Shown one piece after another: positions 8,082 to 55,015 of a stretch of DNA of 64,000 nucleotides (the first letter of the stretch is position 1; each line of letters begins with the position of its first letter). The notes under the pieces are model-generated. The model was not told the DNA's origin. It saw nothing but the letters and a program-made list of their open reading frames with translations, and ran no database searches. Location of the stretch: positions 12,896,001 to 12,960,000 of the forward strand of contig OZ024755.1 of assembly GCA_964016885.1 (NCBI GenBank), in the 5' to 3' direction. Position numbers and translations under genes: made by a program. Source of the stretch: Eledone cirrhosa. Taxonomy: Eukaryota.

Positions 8082-12521
<4,440 letters not shown>

Positions 12522-18506: not shown

Positions 18507-20320
18507 AGGCCGACTAAGCTGAACCTTTGAAGCCCGCGAGGACTAAGACCTGACGATATTTTTGGTTGTATTAGTGTGAAAGATCGAATTGGCAGAGATG
18601 GACCCAAAATACCTGAGACCCTAAGGTACCTGCCAAGGATTTACCAAGCCCTTAAATAGTTTTCTAATTTGGCACTTGTAGATAGATTTGTTTTCGTTAT
18701 TTCCTAGATCACACAGAGCCTCGAAATGATTTTTTTTAATTATCAGCCGTTTGTATTTATCATTAATATATAAATATATTTATCAATAAACGAACATAAA
18801 TAATTGTTGTTTTGTTTGTTTTACTGGGTATCCCCAAAGAAAAAAAAATTAAACAGCGAAAGAAAGAGATGTTTTGTGCTATCCACTGAGGACTGTGTGC
18901 AGAGGATCTAGTTGGAGAGAGGAAGGAAGACCAAGTGATCTTGAATATGAGTCACAAAAATGAACAGGTGGTTTCGGTCATGCAGACTGTTGATGTTAAG
19001 CACCTGGTCGATGGACGACACTAGCGCTTTACATGCGAGAGTGCTTGGGATCTTGATGATCACTCTACGCGACTGCCTGAGGTGGGAGATAGCTATCCAA
19101 ACCTCACTTAGATTGGGAGAGGCCAGGCCACTGTTGTGTCGAGCACCCGAGTCTTCGTGTGGTATTGAGGGAGGCAGTGTGGACAGTACCACCAGTGCAG
19201 GGATTCTGAACTCATCTAGTAAGTTTGATGCAAACTAATCTCTAATCTGGCCGAGTTTACAGTCGCAAATAAGAAAAACCAGGGCCACCCTTCAGAGCAT
19301 TGGATTTGGTGTACTTCATATTTGTTTCGGTTGCTGAATACAATCAGGGGAAGCTGATTCTCCTGAAGGTCAATAGTTCTCTTCTAACTCGAGCAGGAGC
19401 TCCTTTCCATTGTCAATATGCATTGATCATCTGCAAAGCCGCATTGTTCTCAGAACGACTACACGAATCTTTCGATGCTTGCAGCTGGAACTACTGTCAC
19501 CCATTGATTTGACAGGAATGCAACTCATTTCTACAATTTAGTAAACTGGAGCAACGTGAAATAAATTGTCTTGCTCAAGAATACATCACCCGGTCTGAGA
19601 ATCGAACTCATAACCTTTCGATTGCAAGCCCAATGCTCTAACCACTAAGCCATGAGCCTTGATGGAAGGTGGAAAAAATTGTTATGGTTAGATCAGTGGC
19701 ATAGATCAGCCTCCTGTAATGTGAAGGAGCTCCTGATATTACTAGAGCTGGGAGTAAGCGATGTGATTAGATAGGACATTCTGGTTTTCTACCCATACTG
19801 GGTTTAGGTAACAACCAGGGTTTGGAAAACAGAAGTATATATACACATATATGATGGCTGCAAACTCTAAGAATATTGCAATCGCTTGTCAGGTTATAGA
19901 GTTTGGTGCACCTTTAGGCTACAGCCAGCCACACGAACCTGTAACAGATCCTGAACAAGCAATGCCTGTGCTTTGAAAGTTTGTTTTTTTAAGTGGAGAA
20001 AGGCCTTGCACTCGACCAATCCCACTCTCTGAGCATTGAAAACACTATCCGAAAAGGAGAACTGGTCAACATCATCGGATGCTTCCAAAGCCACGGGGTT
20101 TTTTGATGTTTTTTTCAGAGTTTTCCCCTCCTAGAAAGGTGTTGTTACAACAACTGGGACCCTTTCACTACTGGGTGGAAAGAAAAGTACTATTTGGATA
20201 GCCGTTGACTCTGCTAGGTTCCTGTATTTCATCCCGCAGGGTGTAGAAATATCCCGCAGGTTCTACTAGGTTAAATGTTACCATTAGCATTCGAGAGCGA
20301 CCTGACATAACATACATATA

Positions 20321-20719: not shown

Positions 20720-30870
<10,151 letters not shown>

Positions 30871-36015: not shown

Positions 36016-36045
36016 TTATTTGCCAGGGAGGAGGATACCATCAAA
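36016..36045 (-). CDS. RPL11: RPL11 exon 6 (FDGILLPGK*)
   Basis: cag|TTT GAT GGT ATC CTC CTC CCT GGC AAA TAA; total CDS 543 nt = 180 aa. Confidence 0.93.
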   Translation of the reverse strand, partial: FDGILLPGK

Positions 36046-36867
36046 CTGTAAAGAGAGAAAAGTTCATAGTTATATTTAAGTTATATTTCTCACATCAAAA
36101 AGTAATATAAAATATATTTATTACATCAAAAGGTAATATAGAATATTATATTTATCACATACATATGAAGCTTTATGAAATATCTTTGTATCTTTGGAGA
36201 GAAAATATAAAATATACAATGAGCTGTTTAGGTGATTAAAGCTAGCTATAACTCTTCAGTCGTGTCAATTACACAACAATCTCTCTCTCGTGTTTGATGG
36301 CGTGATAAAATGCATCCAGTATACTCAAGTTGTGTCAAAGACATGACAACCTTCCTAATGCTGGTACCATGATAATATGAACCCAGTATGGGAATGTACA
36401 AGCAAGAGGCTCATCTCAGAGATCAGAACCATCATCTACCATGTGAGGATGTTTAGTGCCATCCGCAGGCCCTGTCACAAGCAATAGATGACAGAAAGAG
36501 ATGGAGAAGGATAGTGATGACAATGAGGGAAATACAAACTTGTAGACCAAAATTAGCTTACAACACAGTTTTCACTTTTAACACATCAAGCACAGATTTC
36601 CTTTTTACTTAAAAACATTTCAGTTTCACAGATTTATATATATATATATAATGGGATGAACTTAATTTGGACAAATGTGTACTTCTAGAAAACCATCACT
36701 GAATACCCTTCATCCTGAAAACTATTTAATAAGGACTTAAGTTTATTTCTCAGCTACAGCTTATACAGAAGTCAAGCAGGCTTCCTGAGGCTGCATCTCA
36801 TAAAAGGTTTTTGAGTCCCAGTCCTATCATGAAAAAACAATAAATAAAAACTGAATAAATAATTCAC

Positions 36868-36962
36868 CTTCTGTTGGAACCACTTCAAAGCTTCTTCTTT
36901 TGTAACTTTATGTTTGACTCCTATCTTGTTCTTCTTTCGTCGACGAAGACTCACGTTGTAAC
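36868..36962 (-). CDS. RPL11: RPL11 exon 5
   Basis: GYNVSLRRRKKNKIGVKHKVTKEEALKWFQQK; 95 nt. Confidence 0.95.
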
Positions 36963-37647
36963 CTGGAAAACAAAGAAATATATTAAGACAATGAGAAATG
37001 CTTGGTATAGTGGATAAAAAACTAGATAACATTTTCAGCTCACACCTATGCAGCTTTAGCTAGCCTGCTACAAAGTTGCATTATAGAGATTTCTTGGGTG
37101 TTCTAATGATAGGGGACCCACCCCCACCATGAAATAAAGCATCTAGTTCAGGAATAGAACCCACGAATTTGGAAAAATTATTAATTGTCATAACTAAGTA
37201 ACTTAATATATGGTTCTGATATAATTATGTTGGGACCTTTTAATTTAAATAGGAACCTTTTAAAATGGATGGTTTTGTATCAATTTCAATTCCTTTTGTT
37301 TAAAATTAGAACCAAAAATGTTAAGTGACATTAACCCCATAATATTTATCTAAAAACCTTCCATTATAACTTTATATAAGAACCTTTCTTAATGTTCCAA
37401 ACACCAGCTTAACCCTTTTAATACCAATCCATTTTTGTCAAGTAATGATACAAACATCAGCTTACTAATTAAATGGTTAGCCATTTATTTTTAAAATTCC
37501 CCCAAATTGATGCAGATAAGCAGTGTATTTCATAAAAAATACAGTAACCTAATTCTTGATTATTTTCAAAATCATTTGTAAATCATGCAAAGTATATTAC
37601 ATTAGAAATACAGTAAGGAAAGGGTTAAAAAAGGGACTGGCAGTGAC

Positions 37648-37774
37648 AAATGTACCATAAATGAAGTAACTGAGGCCAACATAAAGTTGGAACAGTGTTG
37701 CAAAATATGGAATTACTTTAGCAATGGCAAGTCATAGTATATGAAGTTAACATATACTAAGTGTAACATTGCTT
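37648..37774 (-). ncRNA. Box H/ACA snoRNA copy A (RPL11 intron 4); predicted 18S guide; extra 5' hairpin to ~37836
   Basis: Hairpin AGCAATG..CATTGCT, H box AAAGTA, hairpin CCATA..TATGG, ACA plus 3 nt; pockets complementary to 18S GGCAAGUC-U-G-GUG and GAAGUA-U-G-GUUGCAAAG. Confidence 0.85.
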
Positions 37775-38521
37775 TCACTAAATCTTAAACCAACTGACAT
37801 ATTAACACTGGAATATAATGTCCTTTGTGCCAAGAGATATTCTTTTACTGACTTTATTTATTAAACTGTGACTATGCTGAGACTGTGTTGTTAAACCACA
37901 AAGGGTTAACATACACACCAGGTTCTCAGGCGGTTGAGAAAACTCAGCAAAGAAATGATAGTAGTAGGTGAAGTAGCTTCATATGGAACAGGACAGTCTT
38001 ACAGATTTTTATGAATTTCTGAAAAAATAACTTTGCAACCAAGGATGTTCCAAACAACACTATTTATAGTTAAAACAGCATAAGATGCAAGCACACTATA
38101 CATATGTACCCCAGGTACAAAAGCTTCCTTCAAGATATCAATTTTAACAATTAATATCACATTTTCTTTATTTTCTGACGGAATCTATACATGACACCCC
38201 AAGTTGCTAGAAATAGTGCAAATTGCACCCTACTTCAAGAAAAGACTCATTTCACTGTGCACAGGGAGGAAAAACAGGATGGTCTATCTATATGGAACAG
38301 TTGAACATAAGTCTATTGAATCAAGGCCAACTTGGAACTATATTACAATATGGTACTACTTTACAGCTAGTTTGACTGGGCTTATTTTGAGGGATAAATA
38401 TACTGATCAGACCAAATATAGAACCAATCATCATACAAAATGTGAACTCTGACCTTACTGATCCACTCAAATAGGATAACATCAATATCTCTTTATATCA
38501 GCGACAATTTTTTTTATAGGT

Positions 38522-38648
38522 AATTGTACCATAAATGAAGTAACTGAGGCCAACATAAAGTTGGAGCAGTGTTGCAAAATATGGAATTACTTTAGCAATG
38601 GCAAGTCATAGTATATGAAGTTAACATATACTAAGTGTAACATTGCTT
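38522..38648 (-). ncRNA. Box H/ACA snoRNA copy B (RPL11 intron 4)
   Basis: Near-identical to copy A; boxes and pockets intact. Confidence 0.85.
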
Positions 38649-39682
38649 TCACTAAATCTTAAACCAACTGACATATTAACACTGGAACATAATGTCCTTT
38701 GTGCCAAGAGATATTCTTTTACTGACTATATTAAGTGTTAATTTTCGCAGTAAGGGCCTAATCTCGCAGCAGCCTTGAATTGAAGAGATTTTGATGATGT
38801 TTTGTTTATTTTTAGAACGATTATTTAGTGTGGGTGTTTTCAGGCGATTTGAACACTAAAGGGTTGGTCTTGAGGGTGTTCCAAATCAAGCTTCACCTGT
38901 TTCCTGTTTTTATTTCCTCCTCAACATTTTGAGCCATATCCTTCTTGGTCTCCTGCCTTGCAGTCATTTTCATCACTCCTCTCAAACCACTTTTAACCTT
39001 CAACACACAACTTAGCCACTCCATTCCATTTCTCTACAAAACATGACTGACTATACTTTTTTCACCATCATATCCTCCCTCAACGCATAGTAAATATTTT
39101 ATGTCATATAATCCATGTAATCTATAAATTATACATGATTTACTTATTTACACATGATTGCTACTTTTGATACCCACACACCCTAAATAAATCTGGTCTA
39201 AAACTGTCCAAATTTAGTACATATATAAATAATAACTGAAATCTCATTACAATTCAAAGAGTAGTTCAGTTAATTCTAGTGTCGGAAATGCAACAGATCA
39301 CACCCATGGAAGTTTAGTTAGCTTCATATGAGGGTGCATTCCATAAGTTCCTCATATGTTTTAACACTGAACAGTCTCTAATGATTTGTAGAAAATGGGT
39401 TTGTTAATTTAAATGTTTACACTATCTTTATTAGTGGACAGATCAGAGAAAGTTTACAGTAGAATAATAACTAATTTTTAATATGATGGATGTTTTGCTC
39501 ATGTGGTTTCATTTGGTATAGACTAGAGAATTAATGATATGGGTACACCAATCCTACCACGATATTAAGAACCTTGCTCAAAAATACAATCTGCCACTCA
39601 GTCCAATTCAAACCCACAAGGCCATGCTGCTGACTTTCTGATGAATAAAAAAAGAAAAGAAAAGATAAAAATAACACTATAC

Positions 39683-39830
39683 CTGGTCGCCCAAGAACAA
39701 TGTAGAAATCCATGCCGTAGATTCCAATATTGGGATCATACTTAATCCCTAAATCAATGTGTTCTTGAATACCAAATCCAAAATTACCAGTCTCAGAAAA
39801 GTTTGACTTCCTCAATTCATATTCTCTAAC
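39683..39830 (-). CDS. RPL11: RPL11 exon 4
   Basis: [49 protein letters not shown]; 148 nt. Confidence 0.97.
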
Positions 39831-40383
39831 CTGTAAAACAATAAAGATTAATATCACAATTAATAAAATGCAGAAGAAACAAACCAGCCACGACCGTTTC
39901 TAATCCCAAATTACCTGAGACTGCCCCCAGTGTCACAATACAAAACCATTTGTCTTAAAGTATTGGCACTTATTTTAAAACCTTCCATCAAAATTTTATG
40001 TAAGAATATTAAATGTAAAAAAAAAGAAGCTGGTTATCAGATCAGACTAAGGAAACAATGTTTCCATTGCTAATACATCAAACCCTAACTAAAAAATGAG
40101 GAAATTAACCAATTCTTATTTGAAAATTATATAACAAAAGGGTTAAACTATTTGGATACAAAATCGTTCTTTGTTCTATGATAGAAAATTGTTTTATTTT
40201 AACTTTTACCACCCTGTAATGATTTACCAGAAAATATATTTAAAGATGGTAATTAAAATGTTTATAGTATTTTTACTAGTGGACAAATTGCGAAATATTG
40301 TCAGTGCTATTTTGTACTTTTTAAGAATGTTTTGCTTATATGATCTTGTGTTGTTGAGGATGTTAAAGAGTTAACTGATAAAT

Positions 40384-40508
40384 TACTGTACCATAAACGA
40401 AGTAACTGAAGCCAACAAAGTTGGAGCAGCGTTGCAAAATATGGAATTACTTTAGCAATGGCAAGTCATAGTATACAAGGTTAACATATACTAAGTGTTA
40501 CATTGCTT
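40384..40508 (-). ncRNA. Box H/ACA snoRNA copy C (RPL11 intron 3)
   Basis: Diverged copy; changes fall in loops or give G-U pairs; boxes intact. Confidence 0.8.
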
Positions 40509-41849
40509 TCACTAAATCTTAATAAACCAACTGACATATTAACACTGTAACATCATGTCCTTTTTTCCAAGATATTCTTTTACTAGTTTTACTTATTAAA
40601 CTGTGACCATGTAGAGACCTCTGCGTTGTTAAACCAAAGTTACAGGACATTAACACATACACATGTATGTTGATATTTTAAGACAGATTCTCAGGAGGTT
40701 GAGAAAACTCAGCAAAGAAATGATAGCAGATGATGTAGCTTCATGTGGAACAGGGCAGTTTTACAGCTTTTTATAAATTTCTTAAGTAACTTTCCAATGT
40801 AAGATGCCAACCAACTGCACATATACAATCGAGATACAAAACTTCAATTTTTACCAGCTGATTTAAGATCCACATGTCCTCATCAAATTAGGTTCAATGA
40901 GAATTCAACACAAACTGAAGTGATTTTTCCAACACCACCCTTTCTCTACTTTCATTTTAACATCCAGTGAAGAGTTAGCATAAAATGCCCCAAAATAGAT
41001 CTGCTAATTCATATGTTTATATCTTTACTAAGGGACAAATCAGTATCAAAATTCGCAGTAAAGTCTTTCACATTTAACATGATGCAGTCATAGTACTGTT
41101 CCATACTTTTCAAGAATGTCTTGCTAATAGTTTCATATGGTACATATTTTAAAGTGATGAATATTTGAGTATGAATGATTGTTTCCTGAGGAACTAGCAC
41201 CAACATTGAGCTAGGCCAGACCTGCGTATTAAGGAATTATTATAGCAGTATTTTGTCAAAGTATGACATACAGTCAAATACTTTGTTGTACACTGCTACT
41301 ACCAGTTTAAAACATTTTTTTTAAATGATTCATTAGTTTAACTGTACATACGGGGGCCTATTGCATGTGTAGTACATAATGTCTGTATGCATATTTACCA
41401 CATAAGCCTATAGGTGACTCCGATGTCACTTTATCAGCTAGAAATAATAACCACATCACCATCAATCAACTCACATTATATTGTCTGAATCCTTTTCATA
41501 CCAAGAGCCATACTCCCATTAAATGACAACTTAAGCCTTTTGATACTAAACCATCTGGAGCAATCCTTAGTTCTATTTAGAGACAGAATGGTCACATGAA
41601 AAAAACGTAATCTACCAAATCAAGATCAACTTGGCACTACACAACACAATATTGTTCTGAAATCAGGGTACCACACTTTACAGTAAGTTTGACAGCTTAT
41701 TTTAAAAATTATGTATGTAAAGAAGATAGATGCTATGAATTCTGACCTGTTTTAGACCAATCACTCAAATATGACACCCACTCTCTTTCACATATATATC
41801 ATACGAAATACTCATGCATAACAAGACGTAGTGACAAATTTGTATAGAA

Positions 41850-41976
41850 AAGTGTACCATAAACGAAGTAACTGAGGCCAACATAAAGTTGGAGAAGTGT
41901 TGCAAAATATGGAATTACTTTAGCAATGGCAAGTCATAGTATATGAGGTTAACATATACTAAGTGTTACATTGCTT
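41850..41976 (-). ncRNA. Box H/ACA snoRNA copy D (1503-bp array)
   Basis: Boxes intact; one substitution (ACTG>ACTT) breaks a pair in the upper stem of the 3' hairpin. Confidence 0.75.
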
Positions 41977-43352
41977 TCACTAAATCTTGAACCAACTGAC
42001 ATCTTAACACTGGAAGATAATGTCCTACTTTCCAAGATATTCTTTTACTGGTTTTAGTTATTAAATTGTGACCACGCTGAGACCACTGCATTGTTAAACC
42101 ACAAAATTACAGGACATTAAAACATACACGTGTATGTTGATAATTTGGTTAAGACACAACACCAGGTTCTTAGGAGGTTGAGAGAACTCAGCAAAGAAAT
42201 GACAGCAGTAGCCAATATGAATTCATGTGAAACAGGGCAGAGTTTTACACCTTTTTATAAATTTCTTAGGTAACTTTCCAAACCATTCTATTTAAAATCA
42301 TGTAAGAGGCCAACTCACTGCACATATACAATCTAGATACAAAACTTCAATTTTTACCAGCTGATTTAAGATCCACATGTCCTCATCAAATTAGGTTCAA
42401 TGAGAATTCAACACAATCTGTAGCAATTTTTCCAACACCACCCTTTCTCTACTTTCATTTTAACATCCAGTGAAGAGTTAGCATAAAATGCCCCAAAATA
42501 GATCTGCTAATTCAAATGTTTATATCTTTACTAAGAGACAAATCAGTAACAAAATTCGCAGTAAAGTCTTTCACATTTAACATGATGCAGTCATAGTACT
42601 GTTCCATACTTTTCAAGAATGTCTTGCTAATAGTTTCATATGGTACATATTTTAAAGTGATGAATATTTGAGTATGAATGATTGTTTCCTGAGGAACTAG
42701 CACCAACATTGAGCTAGGCCAGACCTGCGTATTAAGGAATTATTATAGCAGTATTTTGTCAAAGTATGACATACAGTCAAATACTTTGTTGTACACTGCT
42801 ACTACCAGTTTAAAACATTTTTTTTAAATGATTCATTAGTTTAACTGTACATACGGGGGCCTATTGCATGTGTAGTACATAATGTCTGTATGCATATTTA
42901 CCACATAAGCCTATAGGTGACTCCGATGTCACTTTATCAGCTAGAAATAATAACCACATCACCATCAATCAACTCACATTATATTGTCTGAATCCTTTTC
43001 ATACCAAGAGCCATACTCCCATTAAATGACAACTTAAGCCTTTTGATACTAAACCATCTGGAGCAATCCTTAGTTCTATTTAGAGACAGAATGGTCACAT
43101 GAAAAAAACGTAATCTACCAAATCAAGATCAACTTGGCACTACACAACACAATATTGTTCTGAAATCAGGGTACCACACTTTACAGTAAGTTTGACAGCT
43201 TATTTTAAAAATTATGTATGTAAAGAAGATAGATGCTATGAATTCTGACCTGTTTTAGACCAATCACTCAAATATGACACCCACTCTCTTTCACATATAT
43301 ATCATACGAAATACTCATGCATAACAAGACGTAGTGACAAATTTGTATAGAA

Positions 43353-43479
43353 AAGTGTACCATAAACGAAGTAACTGAGGCCAACATAAAGTTGGAGCAG
43401 TGTTGCAAAATATGGAATTACTTTAGCAATGGCAAGTCATAGTATATGAGGTTAACATATACTAAGTGTTACATTGCTT
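43353..43479 (-). ncRNA. Box H/ACA snoRNA copy E (1503-bp array)
   Basis: Intact structure, boxes and pockets. Confidence 0.82.
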
Positions 43480-44855
43480 TCACTAAATCTTGAACCAACT
43501 GACATCTTAACACTGGAAGATAATGTCCTACTTTCCAAGATATTCTTTTACTGGTTTTAGTTATTAAATTGTGACCACGCTGAGACCACTGCATTGTTAA
43601 ACCACAAAATTACAGGACATTAAAACATACACGTGTATGTTGATAATTTGGTTAAGACACAACACCAGGTTCTTAGGAGGTTGAGAGAACTCAGCAAAGA
43701 AATGACAGCAGTAGCCAATATGAATTCATGTGAAACAGGGCAGAGTTTTACACCTTTTTATAAATTTCTTAGGTAACTTTCCAAACCATTCTATTTAAAA
43801 TCATGTAAGAGGCCAACTCACTGCACATATACAATCTAGATACAAAACTTCAATTTTTACCAGCTGATTTAAGATCCACATGTCCTCATCAAATTAGGTT
43901 CAATGAGAATTCAACACAATCTGTAGCAATTTTTCCAACACCACCCTTTCTCTACTTTCATTTTAACATCCAGTGAAGAGTTAGCATAAAATGCCCCAAA
44001 ATAGATCTGCTAATTCAAATGTTTATATCTTTACTAAGAGACAAATCAGTAACAAAATTCGCAGTAAAGTCTTTCACATTTAACATGATGCAGTCATAGT
44101 ACTGTTCCATACTTTTCAAGAATGTCTTGCTAATAGTTTCATATGGTACATATTTTAAAGTGATGAATATTTGAGTATGAATGATTGTTTCCTGAGGAAC
44201 TAGCACCAACATTGAGCTAGGCCAGACCTGCGTATTAAGGAATTATTATAGCAGTATTTTGTCAAAGTATGACATACAGTCAAATACTTTGTTGTACACT
44301 GCTACTACCAGTTTAAAACATTTTTTTTAAATGATTCATTAGTTTAACTGTACATACGGGGGCCTATTGCATGTGTAGTACATAATGTCTGTATGCATAT
44401 TTACCACATAAGCCTATAGGTGACTCCGATGTCACTTTATCAGCTAGAAATAATAACCACATCACCATCAATCAACTCACATTATATTGTCTGAATCCTT
44501 TTCATACCAAGAGCCATACTCCCATTAAATGACAACTTAAGCCTTTTGATACTAAACCATCTGGAGCAATCCTTAGTTCTATTTAGAGACAGAATGGTCA
44601 CATGAAAAAAACGTAATCTACCAAATCAAGATCAACTTGGCACTACACAACACAATATTGTTCTGAAATCAGGGTACCACACTTTACAGTAAGTTTGACA
44701 GCTTATTTTAAAAATTATGTATGTAAAGAAGATAGATGCTATGAATTCTGACCTGTTTTAGACCAATCACTCAAATATGACACCCACTCTCTTTCACATA
44801 TATATCATACGAAATACTCATGCATAACAAGACGTAGTGACAAATTTGTATAGAA

Positions 44856-44982
44856 AAGTGTACCATAAACGAAGTAACTGAGGCCAACATAAAGTTGGAG
44901 CAGTGTTGCAAAATATGGAATTACTTTAGCAATGGCAAGTCATAGTATATGAGGTTAACATATACTAAGTGTTACATTGCTT
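44856..44982 (-). ncRNA. Box H/ACA snoRNA copy F (1503-bp array)
   Basis: Appears identical to copy E. Confidence 0.82.
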
Positions 44983-46358
44983 TCACTAAATCTTGAACCA
45001 ACTGACATCTTAACACTGGAAGATAATGTCCTACTTTCCAAGATATTCTTTTACTGGTTTTAGTTATTAAATTGTGACCACGCTGAGACCACTGCATTGT
45101 TAAACCACAAAATTACAGGACATTAAAACATACACGTGTATGTTGATAATTTGGTTAAGACACAACACCAGGTTCTTAGGAGGTTGAGAGAACTCAGCAA
45201 AGAAATGACAGCAGTAGCCAATATGAATTCATATGAAACAGGGCAGAGTTTTACACCTTTTTATAAATTTCTTAGGTAACTTTCCAAACCATTCTATTTA
45301 AAATCATGTAAGAGGCCAACTCACTGCACATATACAATCTAGATACAAAACTTCAATTTTTACCAGCTGATTTAAGATCCACATGTCCTCATCAAATTAG
45401 GTTCAATGAGAATTCAACACAATCTGTAGCAATTTTTCCAACACCACCCTTTCTCTACTTTCATTTTAACATCCAGTGAAGAGTTAGCATAAAATGCCCC
45501 AAAATAGATCTGCTAATTCAAATGTTTATATCTTTACTAAGAGACAAATCAGTATCAAAATTCGCAGTAAAGTCTTTCACATTTAACATGATGCAGTCAT
45601 AGTACTGTTCCATACTTTTCAAGAATGTCTTGCTAATAGTTTCATATGGTACATATTTTAAAGTGATGAATATTTGAGTATGAATGATTGTTTCCTGAGG
45701 AACTAGCACCAACATTGAGCTAGGCCAGACCTGCGTATTAAGGAATTATTATAGCAGTATTTTGTCAAAGTATGACATACAGTCAAATACTTTGTTGTAC
45801 ACTGCTACTACCAGTTTAAAACATTTTTTTTAAATGATTCATTAGTTTAACTGTACATACGGGGGCCTATTGCATGTGTAGTACATAATGTCTGTATGCA
45901 TATTTACCACATAAGCCTATAGGTGACTCCGATGTCACTTTATCAGCTAGAAATAATAACCACATCACCATCAATCAACTCACATTATATTGTCTGAATC
46001 CTTTTCATACCAAGAGCCATACTCCCATTAAATGACAACTTAAGCCTTTTGATACTAAACCATCTGGAGCAATCCTTAGTTCTATTTAGAGACAGAATGG
46101 TCACATGAAAAAAACGTAATCTACCAAATCAAGATCAACTTGGCACTACACAACACAATATTGTTCTGAAATCAGGGTACCACACTTTACAGTAAGTTTG
46201 ACAGCTTATTTTAAAAATTATGTATGTAAAGAAGATAGATGCTATGAATTCTGACCTGTTTTAGACCAATCACTCAAATATGACACCCACTCTCTTTCAC
46301 ATATATATCATACGAAATACTCATGCATAACAAGACGTAGTGACAAATTTGTATAGAA

Positions 46359-46485
46359 AAGTGTACCATAAACGAAGTAACTGAGGCCAACATAAAGTTG
46401 GAGCAGTGTTGCAAAATATGGAATTACTTTAGCAATGGCAAGTCATAGTATATGAGGTTAACATATACTAAGTGTTACATTGCTT
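46359..46485 (-). ncRNA. Box H/ACA snoRNA copy G (1503-bp array)
   Basis: Appears identical to copy E. Confidence 0.82.
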
Positions 46486-47906
46486 TCACTAAATCTTGAA
46501 CCAACTGACATCTTAACACTGGAAGATAATGTCCTACTTTCCAAGATATTCTTTTACTGGTTTTAGTTATTAAATTGTGACCACGCTGAGACCACTGCAT
46601 TGTTAAACCACAAAATTACAGGACATTAAAACATACACGTGTATGTTGATAATTTGGTTAAGACACAACACCAGGTTCTTAGGAGGTTGAGAGAACTCAG
46701 CAAAGAAATGACAGCAGTAGCCAATATGAATTCATATGAAACAGGGCAGAGTTTTACACCTTTTTATAAATTTCTTAGGTAACTTTCCAAACCATTCTAT
46801 TTAAAATCATGTAAGAGGCCAACTCACTGCACATATACAATCTAGATACAAAACTTCAATTTTTACCAGCTGATTTAAGATCCACATGTCCTCATCAAAT
46901 TAGGTTCAATGAGAATTCAACACAATCTGTAGCAATTTTTCCAACACCACCCTTTCTCTACTTTCATTTTAACATCCAGTGAAGAGTTAGCATAAAATGC
47001 CCCAAAATAGATCTGCTAATTCAAATGTTTATATCTTTACTAAGAGACAAATCAGTATCAAAATTCGCAGTAAAGTCTTTCACATTTAACATGATGCAGT
47101 CATAGTACTGTTCCATACTTTTCAAGAATGTCTTGCTAATAGTTTCATATGGTACATATTTTAAAGTGATGAATATTTGAGTACGAATGATTGTTTCCTG
47201 CAATGAGTAACTGGCACCAACATTGAACTAGGCCAGACTTGCATATTAAGGAATTATTATAGCAGTATTTTATCAAAGTAGATGACATACAGTCAAATAC
47301 TCCGTCGAACACTGCATCTATCAGTAGAAGACAGTCAAATACTAACCCATTTGCTGGCTCTCATAAAACTGCAGAAAGGCCAACATCTCATATGGGAGAG
47401 AATTAAAATACACAAACACAGTATAGGGCCCTCCTTACCCCGGCAGTGATGATGGTGCAATACAATCAACCTAACCATAAAACACCATACAGACACAAAG
47501 ATTGTTTTGTTTGGGGCTTGGTAAGTAGTAGTGTTTGTATGCATATTACCCATATAAGCCTATAGGTGAGCCCAGTGTCACTTTACCAGTTAGAAATAAA
47601 AACCACATCACCTTCAACTCACACCATATTGTCTTAATACTTTTCATACTAAGAAGCCTGAACAACCATACTCCCATTAAATCACAACCATCTGAAACAA
47701 CCCTTAGTTCTATGACAAAACTATTTAAAGACAGGGTGGTCATAAGAAAAAACTTATTTTAAAAGTTAAGTGTTTAAATGAGACATGATATGAACTCTGA
47801 CCCGTTTTAGACCACCCACTCAAATATGATGCCCACTCTCTTTCACACATATATATCATACAAAATACTCATGCATAACAAGACTTAGTGACAAATTTGT
47901 ATGGAA

Positions 47907-48033
47907 AAATGTACCATAAATGAAGTAACCGAGGCCAACATAAAGTCGGAGCAGTGTTGCAAAATATGGAATTACTTTAGCAATGGCAAGTCATAGTATA
48001 TGAAGTTAACATATACTAAGTGTAACATTGCTT
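47907..48033 (-). ncRNA. Box H/ACA snoRNA copy H (RPL11 intron 3)
   Basis: Two A>G changes both give G-U pairs; two-hairpin core intact, upstream third hairpin truncated at ~48075. Confidence 0.8.
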
Positions 48034-48289
48034 TCACTAAATCTTAAACCAACTGACATATTAACACTGGAATATATATACTAAGTGTAACATTGCTTTA
48101 ACTAAATCTTAATAAACAAATCCTCATCATTTTACATCCACTTTTCCCTGCTTGCAAGGGTGGGACGGGAACTGATTCTGGCTTGATTTCTACAGCTGGA
48201 TGCCCTTCCTAACACCAACCTCATTTACAGTGAGTGTTGGGTGGGTTTTTTTCCGTGGAATGATAGGGACCCCAGTCCTATCATCTCAT

Positions 48290-48428
48290 TTCTACAGCTG
48301 AGTAAACTGGAGCAATGTGAAATAAAGTGTCTTGCTCAAGGAAACAACATATCACCCGGTCTGAGAATTGAACTCACAACCTTTCGATTGTAAGCCCAAT
48401 GCTCTCACCACTAAGCCATGTGCCTCCA
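48290..48428 (-). mobile_element. tRNA-derived SINE family 2 (CORE-like domain)
   Basis: Head GGAGGCACATGGCTTAGTGG...GAGTTCAATTC and CCTTGAGCAAGACACTTTATTTCAC; related copies at ~4800-5110, 7380-8045, 19400-19660, 35690-35925. Confidence 0.75.
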
Positions 48429-49009
48429 AATACATATTTAAACTGTAGATATATATTAATATCCACTAATGAAGTCAGTTTAATAAACACAGCAATAAAA
48501 CACCATACATACACTAAGTCCAAAACAATCATCACTATAATTTTTCAGGGATAATTAGATGTAAAGACATTATAATGGCGTCAGCACATTAAAACAATCG
48601 CCTCAACAAACCATCTAAACCCATGCATGCACAGAAAAAGTCAACTTAAAAAACGAAACAGCCATGTGATAGAATCTCAATTTTAAATCACCCACCAGTC
48701 TTAACATCCAGTACCACATGAAATCTGCATTAACCAAACATTCTTAATACGTTCTGCATCACATTAAATATTTAAAGTCATTACTCTAATATTGCAAATT
48801 TCTACAATTTGTCCACTTGCGAAGATACAATTAAACATTTTAATTAACAAAAATACACTCTGCTTATACAGGTTTCTTTATAAATAACTAGTTTGTGTTT
48901 TTTCCTATTTTGTTTCATTTACTATATTTTTTAACATACCTGAACAGTTTTTTACACATTCTTGTATAACTATGAAAACGTCAGTTATAATAAAAAGGTA
49001 AAAATATAC

Positions 49010-49116
49010 CTTGAGACCTCTCTCCAGAATTTCTTCAGCTTTGGCACCACGAACAGTGCAATGGACTGCAATCTTTTCATTTCTCCTTATACCAAAGGAT
49101 CTGACGGTGTACCTAG
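49010..49116 (-). CDS. RPL11: RPL11 exon 3
   Basis: [36 protein letters not shown]; 107 nt; canonical splice sites. Confidence 0.97.
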
Positions 49117-49706
49117 CTGGTAAGAAATAAAAACAACCTCACAATAGAATATAAACTAGACCCTATTATGATGATATAAAAAGCATGGCAAAGAAACTGG
49201 ATTTGAAATGCTTTCAACTAAGCTGCTTATATCAAGTCAACTATACTAAAATAATAATGATGCACCTATACGTCCAACCCATGCTAGCATGGAAAAGCAG
49301 ACATAAAAACGTCAACGATGACACCAGAAATGTTCATAAACGCCTCAGTCGTTCATTCATTCATAAACACAAATATAAGAATTTGAAAAACAATTCACTG
49401 GTGATATTACTAAAAAAGATAAATCTCCAGATAGTGGCACAGCTGGAGCTAACTTAGAGAAAGCCTGATCACCACAGCTCTCCATTCTGATACTTACAAC
49501 CATGAAGAGTCCATTGCCACTGGTGACTTTAACAAAGTCAGTTCACAAATGTATCAAGCAGGAGCAAGCCCATGTAAAGCTCTGAATATTATTCAGGAGT
49601 TTACAAGAAGCCAAAGTAGTGGCCTAATGTGTTCAGAGATATTGCCATCTTACTATTTCCACAATTATCATCAAATCAAGAGTTCTTTTGATACAATTTT
49701 ACTTAC

Positions 49707-49863
49707 CTTTTGAAAATACAGGCTGCTGTCCAGTGAGTTGTTCCAACACTTTGGCAGCACGAGTAAGCCTATCACCAGATTCTCCAACACAAATATTCAA
49801 ACATAGCTTCTGGATGCGAAGCTGTCGCATCTGGTTGTTAGCCCGCTTGTCGTCCTTGTCGAC
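49707..49863 (-). CDS. RPL11: RPL11 exon 2
   Basis: [52 protein letters not shown]; ttag| and |gtaagt; 157 nt. Confidence 0.97.
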
Positions 49864-52042
49864 CTAAGTAGGAAAAACACCATCACAATACTACAAATAA
49901 ATTAAAACTTTCGCAACAGTTACATATTATCAGCATTTGGTAAGCCATTGAGGAATGAGGGAGTTACACAGCTACTTTCATTTGTAGCACCTCCCGACGG
50001 CATGATTATAAAAGGAAAGGAAATTTCCGTGGTCACGTGTGCAATTATTTATTCCTTGAATCTTATGTTTTACATTTAGAATGTTCATCTGGGATCAGGT
50101 CAATATTACTACCAGTTTAATACCGATCTTACAAAAATTAAAAACAGGTCGAACCGAGAGTATGGTAAATGATAGTAGAATCTAACCCGGGGGCCACACG
50201 ATGGTGTGGCGAACTACTCAGCCATGTTTGCACCAATTCTTTTAGTAAAATATATATATATAGGGAAAGAGAGAAGGCCCTTCAAATCTTCAGATTAAAA
50301 TTAGAAAATGTTACGAACAAAACACTAAAGAAATTAACAAACATTCACACAGAATCATAAAAGGAAATATATATATATATCTAATCACTGATACTGGTTT
50401 TACTATACCCATGCGGGCGTTAAACGATGGTGGTGTGGTCTAGAAACTGATTATTTTACCATCCACATGTCGAGATAACATTAGTTGGTGATTTTAATCT
50501 TAATTTCCAAAGGATTTTTAATCACAAATACTACGATTTTTAAGTTGAGTTTACTAAAATAATATCTAACTGAAGGGACACGAAATTTAATTAAAACCTT
50601 ATTCACAAATCCATTTACGATATTCACAATTCTATTTACAACGGCAATGTCTTTCTGCAAACACATACACCTTCAGTAATAATTAACAGGTACGCCAAAT
50701 CCCTGAATGGTCTATAAAATCAAGCTTTAAAAGGGCCCTATAATGTGTGTATATATATATATAAATAAAGATTGTTATGGTGCCTTCGAGGCCAATCCTT
50801 GCTTAAGAGAAAAGTGGCCATAAAATTCAAGATTGTCCAACAATATCCACTAATCTATTTAAAGGATAATATTGATATATTGTTTATTCTGCCAACTTGG
50901 TGATCCTTCAGCAATAACGTACATTTTCACAACACATGAAATAAAGTTTAACTAGTGAAGATCGACTTCACACACACAAAAAAAAAATGACAGTAATTTA
51001 CATGTGAAAGAAATGAAATCTACATCTCGCACCGATGTAGATTTAGTTCATCTATAGCGTTATAACTCACAGGTTTCTTGGATGTTTTAATAACAAGGCC
51101 TTCAGTCATCCCATGAAAAGCAACACCACGGGCCGCGAGGTCCTAGATTCTAAGTCACAACCTTATGATCGCCAGTGAAATAACCTAACTACTAAACCAT
51201 GTACCGCCACACGTGGCAACATTCGATGCATAGTGAATAATTGCATAAAATAATATATATTGTGGACAATAAAAGAAATGTAGAGCACGTGGAATAGAAA
51301 AAAATCGTACTAAAACTTACGATCAGATTTAATACAACATAATATTCGATAAATTTTCGATTTTAGTGTTATTTTCGTTTAATGAAATCTAGTTTCTAAG
51401 TTTAGTAATTTTAATCAAAATGATGCAATTAACGAAGTGCTTTTGGGCCTGATTACCTCCAAATTGATTCGTCAAAACTACGATCGGAAGAGGTTTAATT
51501 TTACTTTCTTATTAAGAAGGCACCAAAATATACTATCAACTATCAAGTATATATCTTAAATATGATCATTTGAACCTAATATAAATGAAATAAACATATG
51601 GCCATGGCAGATCTACATAGATATAACATACATCTTATATTTTTTAGGCGTCGAATAAGTTTTACATTTTCCTTAATACAAGTATCTATATAATTTAGTA
51701 ATATTTCTAGGTGTGCTGAGGAAAATCATTTTATAATTTTAAACAAATCAGTTCATATCAGATCGTATAAATAAAAGATTAACTAATTCCTGAGATTAAA
51801 GCTTAATTTGTTGGCAAATGGGTGAAAATATGATAAACACGTATTTTAGTAAGTCATGGGTAAAGAGAGGAGAGTCAAGAAATATTTATTTTCTAAGAAA
51901 TAATATATTGAACTTTAAAATCTACTTGAGAGTAAAAACATACTGTTGTATATTAATTTCAACATAAAAATATCGAAAACTAATACATTTTAATGATACG
52001 ATTGAATAGATTTTACACAGAAAAAAAGAAGTAGCAACTCAC

Positions 52043-52048
52043 CGTCAT
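52043..52048 (-). CDS. RPL11: 60S ribosomal protein L11 (uL5) exon 1 (ATG ACG)
   Basis: Minus strand reads aaaATG ACG|gtgagt just after a pyrimidine-rich initiator; vertebrate RPL11 also has a two-codon first exon. Confidence 0.85.
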
Positions 52049-52058
52049 TTTGTTTTAA

Positions 52059-52069
52059 CCGGAAAGGAA
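52059..52069 (-). promoter_or_regulatory. TCT initiator / 5'TOP tract of RPL11
   Basis: Minus strand TTCCTTTCCGG about 12-20 nt upstream of the ATG; fits the YCTYTYY motif of ribosomal protein genes. Confidence 0.75.
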
Positions 52070-52070
52070 T

Positions 52071-52099
52071 GCAAAGTGCAGTATGGGTAATATGTAGTT
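52071..52099 (-). promoter_or_regulatory. ACTACA + Staf/ZNF143-type binding site
   Basis: Minus strand AACTACATATTACCCATACTGCACTTTGC resembles the composite ACTACAnnTCCCAnnATGC element. Confidence 0.6.
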
Positions 52100-52250
52100 C
52101 AATTTTGTTTTCGTATTTAAATTGCTTTTTGCTTACAAACTTATCAAAATATTATTTAACTACTAAATAAAATTAGTATATTTTTACAAAAAAAATAATA
52201 TAACTCAATGTGTGATGACATTATTGTTTTCTTATTTTCGAACTTTAATT

Positions 52251-52264
52251 GTTGCCATGCCAAC
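52251..52264. promoter_or_regulatory. RFX X-box upstream of DRC1
   Basis: GTTGCCATGCCAAC, one mismatch from the palindromic X-box GTTGCCATGGCAAC, 27 nt before the ATG of a motile-cilium gene. Confidence 0.7.
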
Positions 52265-52291
52265 AGGATATATACAAGATAGACAATAAAT

Positions 52292-52431
52292 ATGTCGACG
52301 GTCTCTAAATTTTTCACTTTGGAACGGGATTCTAGCGATATGCAGAAGCTATTTGAGCCTGACATCAATTCAGAGGATCCTGATGAAAGGATACTCGCGA
52401 GAAGATTGAGAATTGAAAAAACGATTGAACG
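52292..52431 (+). CDS. DRC1: Dynein regulatory complex protein 1 (CCDC164) exon 1
   Basis: MSTVSKFF...[25 protein letters not shown]; matches the DRC1 N-terminal ERIxARRLRI motif; CG|gtatgg donor. Confidence 0.85.
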
Positions 52432-52492
52432 GTATGGACATAAATGAGTGGGTGTGATTATACAAAATAACGTACTTGATCTATGGCGAGTG

Positions 52493-54082: not shown

Positions 54083-54811
54083 TATAGTTATAAGCTTCAA
54101 TAGTAATACATACAAAAGTAATTCATACCATAGATGAGGCTCATAGCATGTCAATCAATGGCCTGCCGTTATACATTGAAACATGTAGAATTAAAATTAT
54201 GTTTTAAATATAACCCTCCATCTATTGAATTTTGAGCTCTGCAGCCTGTGACCTAACAATCTGCAACAGAATCTACAACAGCTGAGAACAACCTCAGCCT
54301 TTTTTAATTACTGCTGGATGAAGGAAACTGGTTAACATAGAGCTTCTCTCAATTTTACTAGGATCGATATTGGTAAACCAATATGAAAATTTGCAGTAAA
54401 GTCTTTCATATTTAACGTGACGTGGTCATAGTGCTGGTCCATACTTTTCAGAGCTTCTGATCTTTCAGATAGGTCAAGGACTGCATCAAACTTACATACA
54501 TTCCTGAATTCTATAGGGTGCAGTGGGTGAATTTTATCATGGCACCAGCACAGAGTAAGTTGTTATATTTTTAACACAACTGAAGGGTCCTCTCATTTCT
54601 TTGTTTGGCTAGTTTTCTATGACCGGTTGCTCTTACTACCAACAACTTTACAGAGTATATTGTGTGTGTTTCACAAGCACTTTAAAAAATACAGTTTAGT
54701 ATTCTAGAACCAAGGATGGTTTGGTATGAGAAGGGTTAAGACGCTTGTTGTACATCCGTGTATTGTCTGCAAACAATATTTTTTATTCTACTGTGTATTT
54801 TCTGTTGTCAG

Positions 54812-55015
54812 AGAAAAGAAAGGAGAAGACCTAGCACCATGCCCAACAGCAATCAATGAAGAAATGAGTAAAGCCACACAACAGATTGAAATAAGCCGTC
54901 AACGGTTGAAAAAGCTGGAGTATGATGGCTCACAGCTAGTGACTAACATCCGCACAGCGGGAGATTCCCGAGAAAGTCAACGGAGGTTAGAGTATGAGGA
55001 ATGTTCACGACAAAG
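54812..55015 (+). CDS. DRC1: DRC1 exon 2
   Basis: EKKGEDL...QQIEISRQRLKKLEYDGSQLVTNIRTAGDSRESQRR; phase 2 to 2. Confidence 0.9.

Follow-up and report, generated by a model that had tools for sequence, protein, structure and literature searches.

The 64,000-nt window of the Eledone cirrhosa genome analysed here (assembly GCA_964016885.1, contig OZ024755.1, positions 12,896,001 to 12,960,000; coordinates below are those of the window unless another locus is named) carries the ribosomal protein gene RPL11 on its minus strand, and introns 3 and 4 of this gene contain eight copies of an element, here called A, which is probably a real and functional intron-encoded gene for a snoRNA (small nucleolar RNA) of the box H/ACA class. 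By its predicted pairing A is, with high probability, a guide for two uridines of the 18S rRNA, U760 and U1849, the counterparts of the human pseudouridines (Ψ) Ψ609 and Ψ1174. The explanation that accounts best for the locus as a whole, and that we regard as rather probable, is an eight-copy intronic H/ACA guide with two 18S targets that would be released by cutting between the copies and subsequent trimming. The copies of A are the following.

37648..37776, minus strand: 3' copy of intron 4
38522..38650, minus strand: 5' copy of intron 4, used as reference copy; pocket-to-box distances of 14 and 15 nt
40384..40510, minus strand: 3'-most copy of intron 3; the most diverged A, with both pockets intact
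41850..41978, minus strand: copy of tandem unit 1; a single change breaks a pair of the 3' upper stem
43353..43481, minus strand: copy of tandem unit 2
44856..44984, minus strand: copy of tandem unit 3
46359..46487, minus strand: copy of tandem unit 4
47907..48035, minus strand: 5'-most copy of intron 3

A preliminary description of the window had reported eight sense-strand copies in RPL11, six of them in intron 3 and the other two in intron 4. All were found again, with a length of about 129 nt. Element A has the form of an H/ACA snoRNA, with two hairpins, a hinge box of the type ANANNA and an ACA located 3 nt from the predicted 3' end, and it lies within introns on the same strand as RPL11, a host for which a spliced contig is available. 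The fold that had been claimed (hairpin, AAAGUA, hairpin, ACA plus 3 nt) was recovered in all six of the eight copies that were folded, with z-scores between -1.86 and -4.54; for one copy the opposite strand was folded as well and gave a z of -2.03. The pattern of pockets plus H box was matched eight times in the window and in none of 100 shuffles. Four singletons from a custom H/ACA finder were dropped as chance matches, the finder having given 17 matches on the minus strand, 13 of them A or its paralog B described below, and 6 on the control strand.

The differences between copies lie mostly in loops or preserve pairing through G-U, as had been stated: among the seven copies that align without gaps there are eight variable positions, of which four are in loops, one is in the tail, two keep the pair as G-U and one, belonging to copy 41850, breaks a G-C pair. 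Copy 40384 shows further G-U changes and a 2-nt deletion in a loop. Copies can be distinguished by positions 12, 32, 85, 89, 106 and 115 of the element and by its 3-nt tail. None of the 32 guide (26) and box (6) positions varies, and the same is true of the eight-copy alignment. For the three copies with a homologous upstream flank, variable columns amount to 0/32 in guide and boxes, 8/124 in the element, 5/45 in the leader and 69/234 in the far flank, the last figure being overstated as the distal end of the flank alignment looks misaligned. The earlier claim that flanks diverge faster than the element thus holds in direction for these copies and fails for the four unit copies of intron 3, where the flanks belong to near-identical 1,503-bp units and do not diverge faster. 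Selection on A is likely, and gene conversion may contribute to its conservation. The leader itself (38651..38695 and equivalents, minus strand) covers about 45 nt upstream of A, is 88-100% alike among copies and conserved better than the farther flank, and has no significant fold; it could be a conversion tract, part of a longer 5' end or a processing signal. A short direct duplicate of the 5' part of A is present at 48076-48120, just upstream of the last copy.

For target prediction the pockets were scored against 2,138 uridines of 18S, 28S and 5.8S rRNA from one ribosomal DNA (rDNA) unit of this genome. The 5' pocket of A pairs with 18S U760 over 8+3 bp and the 3' pocket with 18S U1849 over 6+9 bp, and each of these sites took rank 1 of 2,138 in all six A copies tested. 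The scores were reached by 3 and 0 of 100 shuffled pockets for copy 38522 and by 1 and 1 of 100 for copy 43353. Both sites are identical in 3/3 rDNA units, and the pocket-to-box distances of A (14 and 15 nt) fall within the range of 14-16 nt that is canonical for H/ACA snoRNAs. The context of U760 equals that of human U609, according to oligonucleotides given in PMC6776443, and the context of U1849 equals that of human Ψ1174, according to a numbered sequence that supplements PMC6182160; the two human sites are reported as modified to 90% and 100%, respectively. The identification of A as an H/ACA snoRNA is strengthened by these two predicted targets at positions that are pseudouridylated in human. 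Unrelated guides for U760 and U1849 may exist elsewhere in the genome. Both large rRNAs of this species are greatly expanded, the 18S to 2,860 nt (L013:4573-7432) and the 28S to 6,347 nt (L014:839-7185), lengths in keeping with coleoid cephalopods. A short motif of the 18S region around human U866 is absent from the 18S of this genome.

In human the two sites are served by separate snoRNAs, SNORA24 (Ψ609) and SNORA40 (Ψ1174) (PMC8881200). With vertebrate SNORA24, which guides 18S Ψ609 and Ψ863, A has in common the predicted target Ψ609 in helix 18, and differs in that its second pocket is directed to Ψ1174, not to Ψ863. With vertebrate SNORA40 (18S Ψ1174 and 28S Ψ4546; RF00561) it has in common the predicted 18S target in helix 27, termed highly conserved in PMC6984369, and differs in that the Ψ1174 pocket sits together with the Ψ609 pocket in one RNA; an exchange of pockets between unrelated guides is reported in the same source. 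A has no Rfam similarity to either; it is predicted to work like SNORA24 and SNORA40 and is assigned to neither family.

An Rfam scan, proposed in the preliminary description, found no snoRNA in the window that reached gathering score and, at E<=10, only weak matches, with no snoRNA among those on A, so that the thresholds of the SNORA24 and SNORA40 families were not reached; a scan of 47100-52200 gave nothing further, and the model RF00561 run over the genome found no match among 49 candidates scored. A covariance model, R1, derived from both A and B, served on these elements for counting only, its scores on them being circular. In metagenomes a strict pattern found no locus and a looser one 68 loci, none of which was supported by R1 (best 16.4 bits, E 1.2). 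Elsewhere in the genome two copies of U17/SNORA73, 98% alike and with unrelated flanks, are located in successive introns of an RPLP0-like gene (L092:7936-8167 and 9445-9676; G000:C4:182840435-182842175). Both are slightly below the Rfam cut-off (68.7 and 69.8 of 74 bits), and later introns of the same gene gave weak SNORD22- and SNORD59-like matches. A U11 small nuclear RNA (snRNA) gene (96 bits; L093:8606-8739, minus strand) lies about 3 kb downstream of the RPLP0-like gene, and U2 snRNA forms a tandem array of about 49 5' motifs repeated every 2,219 bp (G000:C3:307349256-307458009).

Intron 3 additionally contains five copies of a paralog, B, that had been overlooked before and that raise the number of elements there to eleven.

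41177..41300, minus strand: paralog B of unit 1; H box AUAAUA, ACA plus 3 nt, strong fold, 3' pocket 10 nt from the ACA
42680..42803, minus strand: paralog B of unit 2
44183..44306, minus strand: paralog B of unit 3
45686..45809, minus strand: paralog B of unit 4
47189..47319, minus strand: paralog B', 84% alike to B, with its 3' pocket at 15 nt from the ACA

Over 77 nt, B and A are about 62% alike, and B and B' both have the form of two hairpins with H and ACA boxes (z -4.43 and -2.74). The 3' hairpin of the four unit copies is 5 nt shorter, which places the pocket at 10 nt from the ACA, whereas B' keeps 15 nt. The divergence of B from B' is about that of the surrounding flanks (79-90% alike), with some of the changes within pockets. 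No rRNA target above chance was found for the pockets of B and B', the scores being reached by 23-74 of 100 shuffles; B' still pairs weakly, over 5+5 bp, with the 18S U1849 site (rank 3), which is likewise not above chance. The pockets of B gave no good match to the U2 of this genome, and four short B target words are absent from U11. A weak Rfam match of B to PsiU2-38.40.42 (E 2.2), at 21.3 bits where the cut-off is 88, was rejected because the pockets of B do not fit this U2. In the joint alignment of A and B 94.2% of positions in stems are paired and three pairs show double changes, all between A and B and one of them an alignment register shift; this covariation is weak, as 51 of 500 shuffles reach the same number. 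By sequence, B is most likely an old duplicate, either a decaying or orphan paralog or one with another target.

The introns in question are the following.

39831..49009, minus strand: RPL11 intron 3, 9,179 nt, GT..AG, with six A and five B inside
36963..39682, minus strand: RPL11 intron 4, 2,720 nt, GT..AG, with two A inside

The processing problem that had been raised for internal copies is real, since every copy of A shares its intron with another element, and single guides would need cutting between the copies. The steps proposed are that A would be transcribed together with the RPL11 pre-mRNA, that a cut, specific or not, would fall in the spacers and be followed by exonucleolytic trimming to each protected ribonucleoprotein (RNP), leaving single RNAs of about 130 nt, and that A would bind dyskerin and modify the two 18S sites. 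Such monomers are probably the main product of introns 3 and 4. A cut in the spacers is favoured because an internal copy retains intact pockets and because Drosophila hosts clusters of this kind.

The spacers between the RPL11 copies measure about 550-750 nt, and those of Drosophila clusters are much shorter. Copies in the Drosophila clusters mature into separate small RNAs. Animals mostly have one snoRNA per intron (PMC11028025), whereas the H/ACA snoRNAs of Drosophila are generally clustered within introns (PMC3089462). In the supplement of PMC11028025, whose table gives copies per gene and not per intron, Arpc2 hosts 17 H/ACA snoRNAs (Psi18S-525a-j and Psi18S-640a-g) and RpS5a 13 (Psi28S-1135a-f, Psi28S-1192a-d and Psi18S-1854a-c), all marked as intronic clusters. 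The Drosophila precedent named in the preliminary description is thus correct, and since fly host genes contain at least as many copies each, the RPL11 cluster is less surprising. The two have in common a repeated H/ACA guide with a second family, shared introns and a protein-coding, often ribosomal-protein, host; RPL11 has at least two H/ACA genes in the same intron, as is typical of Drosophila. They differ in lineage, host gene and targets, and fly RpL11 itself is listed in that supplement with one mono-intronic snoRNA, Psi28S-2444. How the fly clusters are cut is not described in PMC1821038, PMC3412847, PMC10557570 or PMC2246290. No report of snoRNA clusters in molluscs or cephalopods was among the matches listed by a search outside of which most subscription journals lie, and an earlier annotation is possible.

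Several observations weigh against this explanation. With respect to the guide, the pockets of A were placed from the fold by the analyst and not blind, one side of the 5' pocket pairs over only 3 bp, and A has no match in Rfam. With respect to its conservation, the difference between element and flank is significant in only one of three pairwise tests (p 0.0014, 0.075 and 0.16), copy 47907 combines a unit-like 3' flank (93% alike) with the variants of intron 4, and gene conversion could account for part of the difference. With respect to release, a cleavage signal was looked for and not detected, as the flanks upstream of seven elements fold no better than shuffles (z -0.73 to +1.09). The U17 pair of the RPLP0-like gene, the sole other snoRNA locus checked, has an exon between its copies, and intron-sharing clusters are accordingly not shown to be general in this genome. 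In human, moreover, two snoRNAs in one intron give rise to snoRNA-ended long non-coding RNAs (sno-lncRNAs; PMC11028025).

These last points speak at the same time for trimming of the introns from their ends only, to which we give a minor share of the probability. End-trimming alone would leave snoRNA-ended RNAs of 1,003 nt from intron 4 and 7,652 nt from intron 3, the latter with nine internal H/ACA domains, as main products and therefore no monomer; the long RNAs would themselves serve as guides or else as scaffolds for dyskerin. The ladder in multiples of 1.5 kb expected in the preliminary description does not follow, since exonuclease-only trimming predicts just one species of each of these two lengths and B would halve the step of any ladder. 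This outcome is the vertebrate one for introns with two snoRNAs, including the H/ACA-ended SLERT (PMC11028025, PMC4696412), it agrees with the lack of both cleavage and splice signals between the copies, and the U17 of this genome keeps to one per intron. Known sno-lncRNAs (PWS sno-lncRNAs, SLERT, SNORD102-SNORA27) form when two snoRNAs share an intron and carry one at each end (PMC11028025, PMC4696412, PMC10557570, PMC10948791), whereas intron 3 of RPL11 has eleven elements. Against end-trimming, all A copies, the internal one included, have kept their guide and box positions, as if each formed its own RNP, the spacers are full of indels and repeat insertions with no conservation of the linker sequence, and Drosophila is an animal able to host H/ACA clusters. 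Somewhat less likely still is a special form of this idea, in which intron 3, with its eleven H/ACA domains, would persist as an uncut RNA of 7.65 kb, either a poly-snoRNP acting on 18S helices 18 and 27 or a nucleolar dyskerin scaffold, with a length that changes by tandem duplication.

Intron 3 also contains a repeated unit.

40797..47190, no strand assigned: recent tandem array of four 1,503-bp units and a partial fifth, with one A and one B per full unit

Units 2-4 differ from one another at 1-2 of 1,503 positions and unit 1 differs from them at 12-13; the four unit copies of A and of B are nearly identical because the duplication is recent. The proposed history is that old duplications in cis would have given about five copies of A and the diverged paralog B, and that a very recent expansion would then have raised the number of A+B units from one to four; selection for dose was probably not involved. 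The view of the cluster as dosage-amplified was accordingly not borne out, as four of the eight A copies stem from this very recent duplication, which also copied B with its damaged 3' pocket. RNA-mediated copying, considered because identity stops at the ACA, was rejected: a poly(A) tail is lacking, the spacers of intron 4 and of the unit are homologous (blocks of 84% and 79%), and repeats adjoin two copies. That the array was over-expanded by the assembly, with a lower real count, appears improbable. The near-identity of units 2-4 would fit such an error, and the DNA runs used as a check may stem from the assembly's own source sample. In these runs (X1 and X2, both of one sample), however, contigs with the unit 2-4 variant have depths of 23.1 and 16.4 compared with 7.84 and 4.9 for those specific to unit 1, a ratio of about 3 that is no copy count but agrees with a real array. 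Even with a single unit there would still be two A in intron 4 and three A plus two B in intron 3.

Hidden splicing, by which recursive sites or non-coding exons would split the introns so that each spliced piece carries one snoRNA, is more improbable again. It would restore the one-per-intron rule predominant in animals (PMC11028025), and contigs omit rare isoforms, so that a contig of exons 3-4-5 does not exclude it. For the recursive or cryptic splicing suggested earlier, there is nevertheless no convincing AG|GT site between the copies: AG|GT-like motifs occur at two places only, both outside the cluster and both with a pyrimidine tract that is weak (6 of 15), and the motif scan, in which units 2-4, being near-identical, were not scanned separately, detected no 3' splice site of at least 9 pyrimidines. 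Moreover, the dominant contig of run X4 (depth 961) joins exons 3, 4 and 5 directly; the kind of this run is unrecorded, and it was treated as RNA because its contig is spliced. Read contigs were examined over 36600-42290 only and do not span the array. Run X4 had no contigs over the A copies, an absence that counts neither for nor against their expression.

Dispersal of the element as a transposon had been named beforehand as an outcome that would speak against a snoRNA. The genome DNA search, which ignores very common words, found A only in RPL11, with eight full matches and one 35-nt fragment at 48076, and all five matches of B are likewise inside this gene. The idea that A could be some dispersed repeat, such as a small transposon, with fold and boxes by chance, is highly improbable in spite of the repeat-rich introns and the blind spot of the search for common words, as 9/9 A and 5/5 B matches lie in RPL11, the depth over A in DNA runs is low while adjoining repeats reach thousands, and two independent pockets match known Ψ sites.

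The coding parts of the host gene are located as follows.

52043..52048, minus strand: RPL11 exon 1, coding part with start codon
49707..49863, minus strand: RPL11 exon 2, match to Pfam PF00281
49010..49116, minus strand: RPL11 exon 3
39683..39830, minus strand: RPL11 exon 4, match to Pfam PF00673
36868..36962, minus strand: RPL11 exon 5
36016..36045, minus strand: RPL11 exon 6, coding part up to the stop codon

Ribosomal L5 domains were thus recognised in exons 2 and 4, and a DNA search of the 3.0-Gb genome matched exon 2 once. In run X4 the abundant contig of RPL11 continues from exon 5 into intron 5 (36657-36867) and not to exon 6, which may be due to a retained intron, a different 3' end or the path taken in the assembly. 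Introns 3 and 4 contain many high-copy repeats, with very high read depth in several bins. Two tRNA-like heads on the minus strand (19595-19652 and 48361-48418) are barely above the tRNA cut-off and probably belong to short interspersed nuclear elements. Microsatellites of (TA)n and TA/CA tracts extend over 8082-12519 (4.4 kb) and 20720-30870 (10 kb). On the plus strand a gene in head-to-head orientation, with exon-like open stretches at 52260-52440 and 54810-55015, begins about 200 nt from the RPL11 start.

Taken as a Drosophila-type multi-copy intronic H/ACA cluster enlarged by recent tandem duplication, the RPL11 array represents an arrangement that is already known, and it extends such clusters beyond Drosophila to Eledone cirrhosa. 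For a guide RNA missed by Rfam, it offers a precise and testable predicted function on the 18S rRNA, at two sites of which one has an effect on decoding in human cells (PMC6776443), and the pockets for Ψ609 and Ψ1174, for which vertebrates use two RNAs, are united in one. The fly is still the easier system for identifying the nuclease. At the RPL11 locus every guide copy shares an intron, which makes cutting and snoRNA-ended long RNAs readily distinguishable, and copy-specific variants would let reads tell which copies mature.

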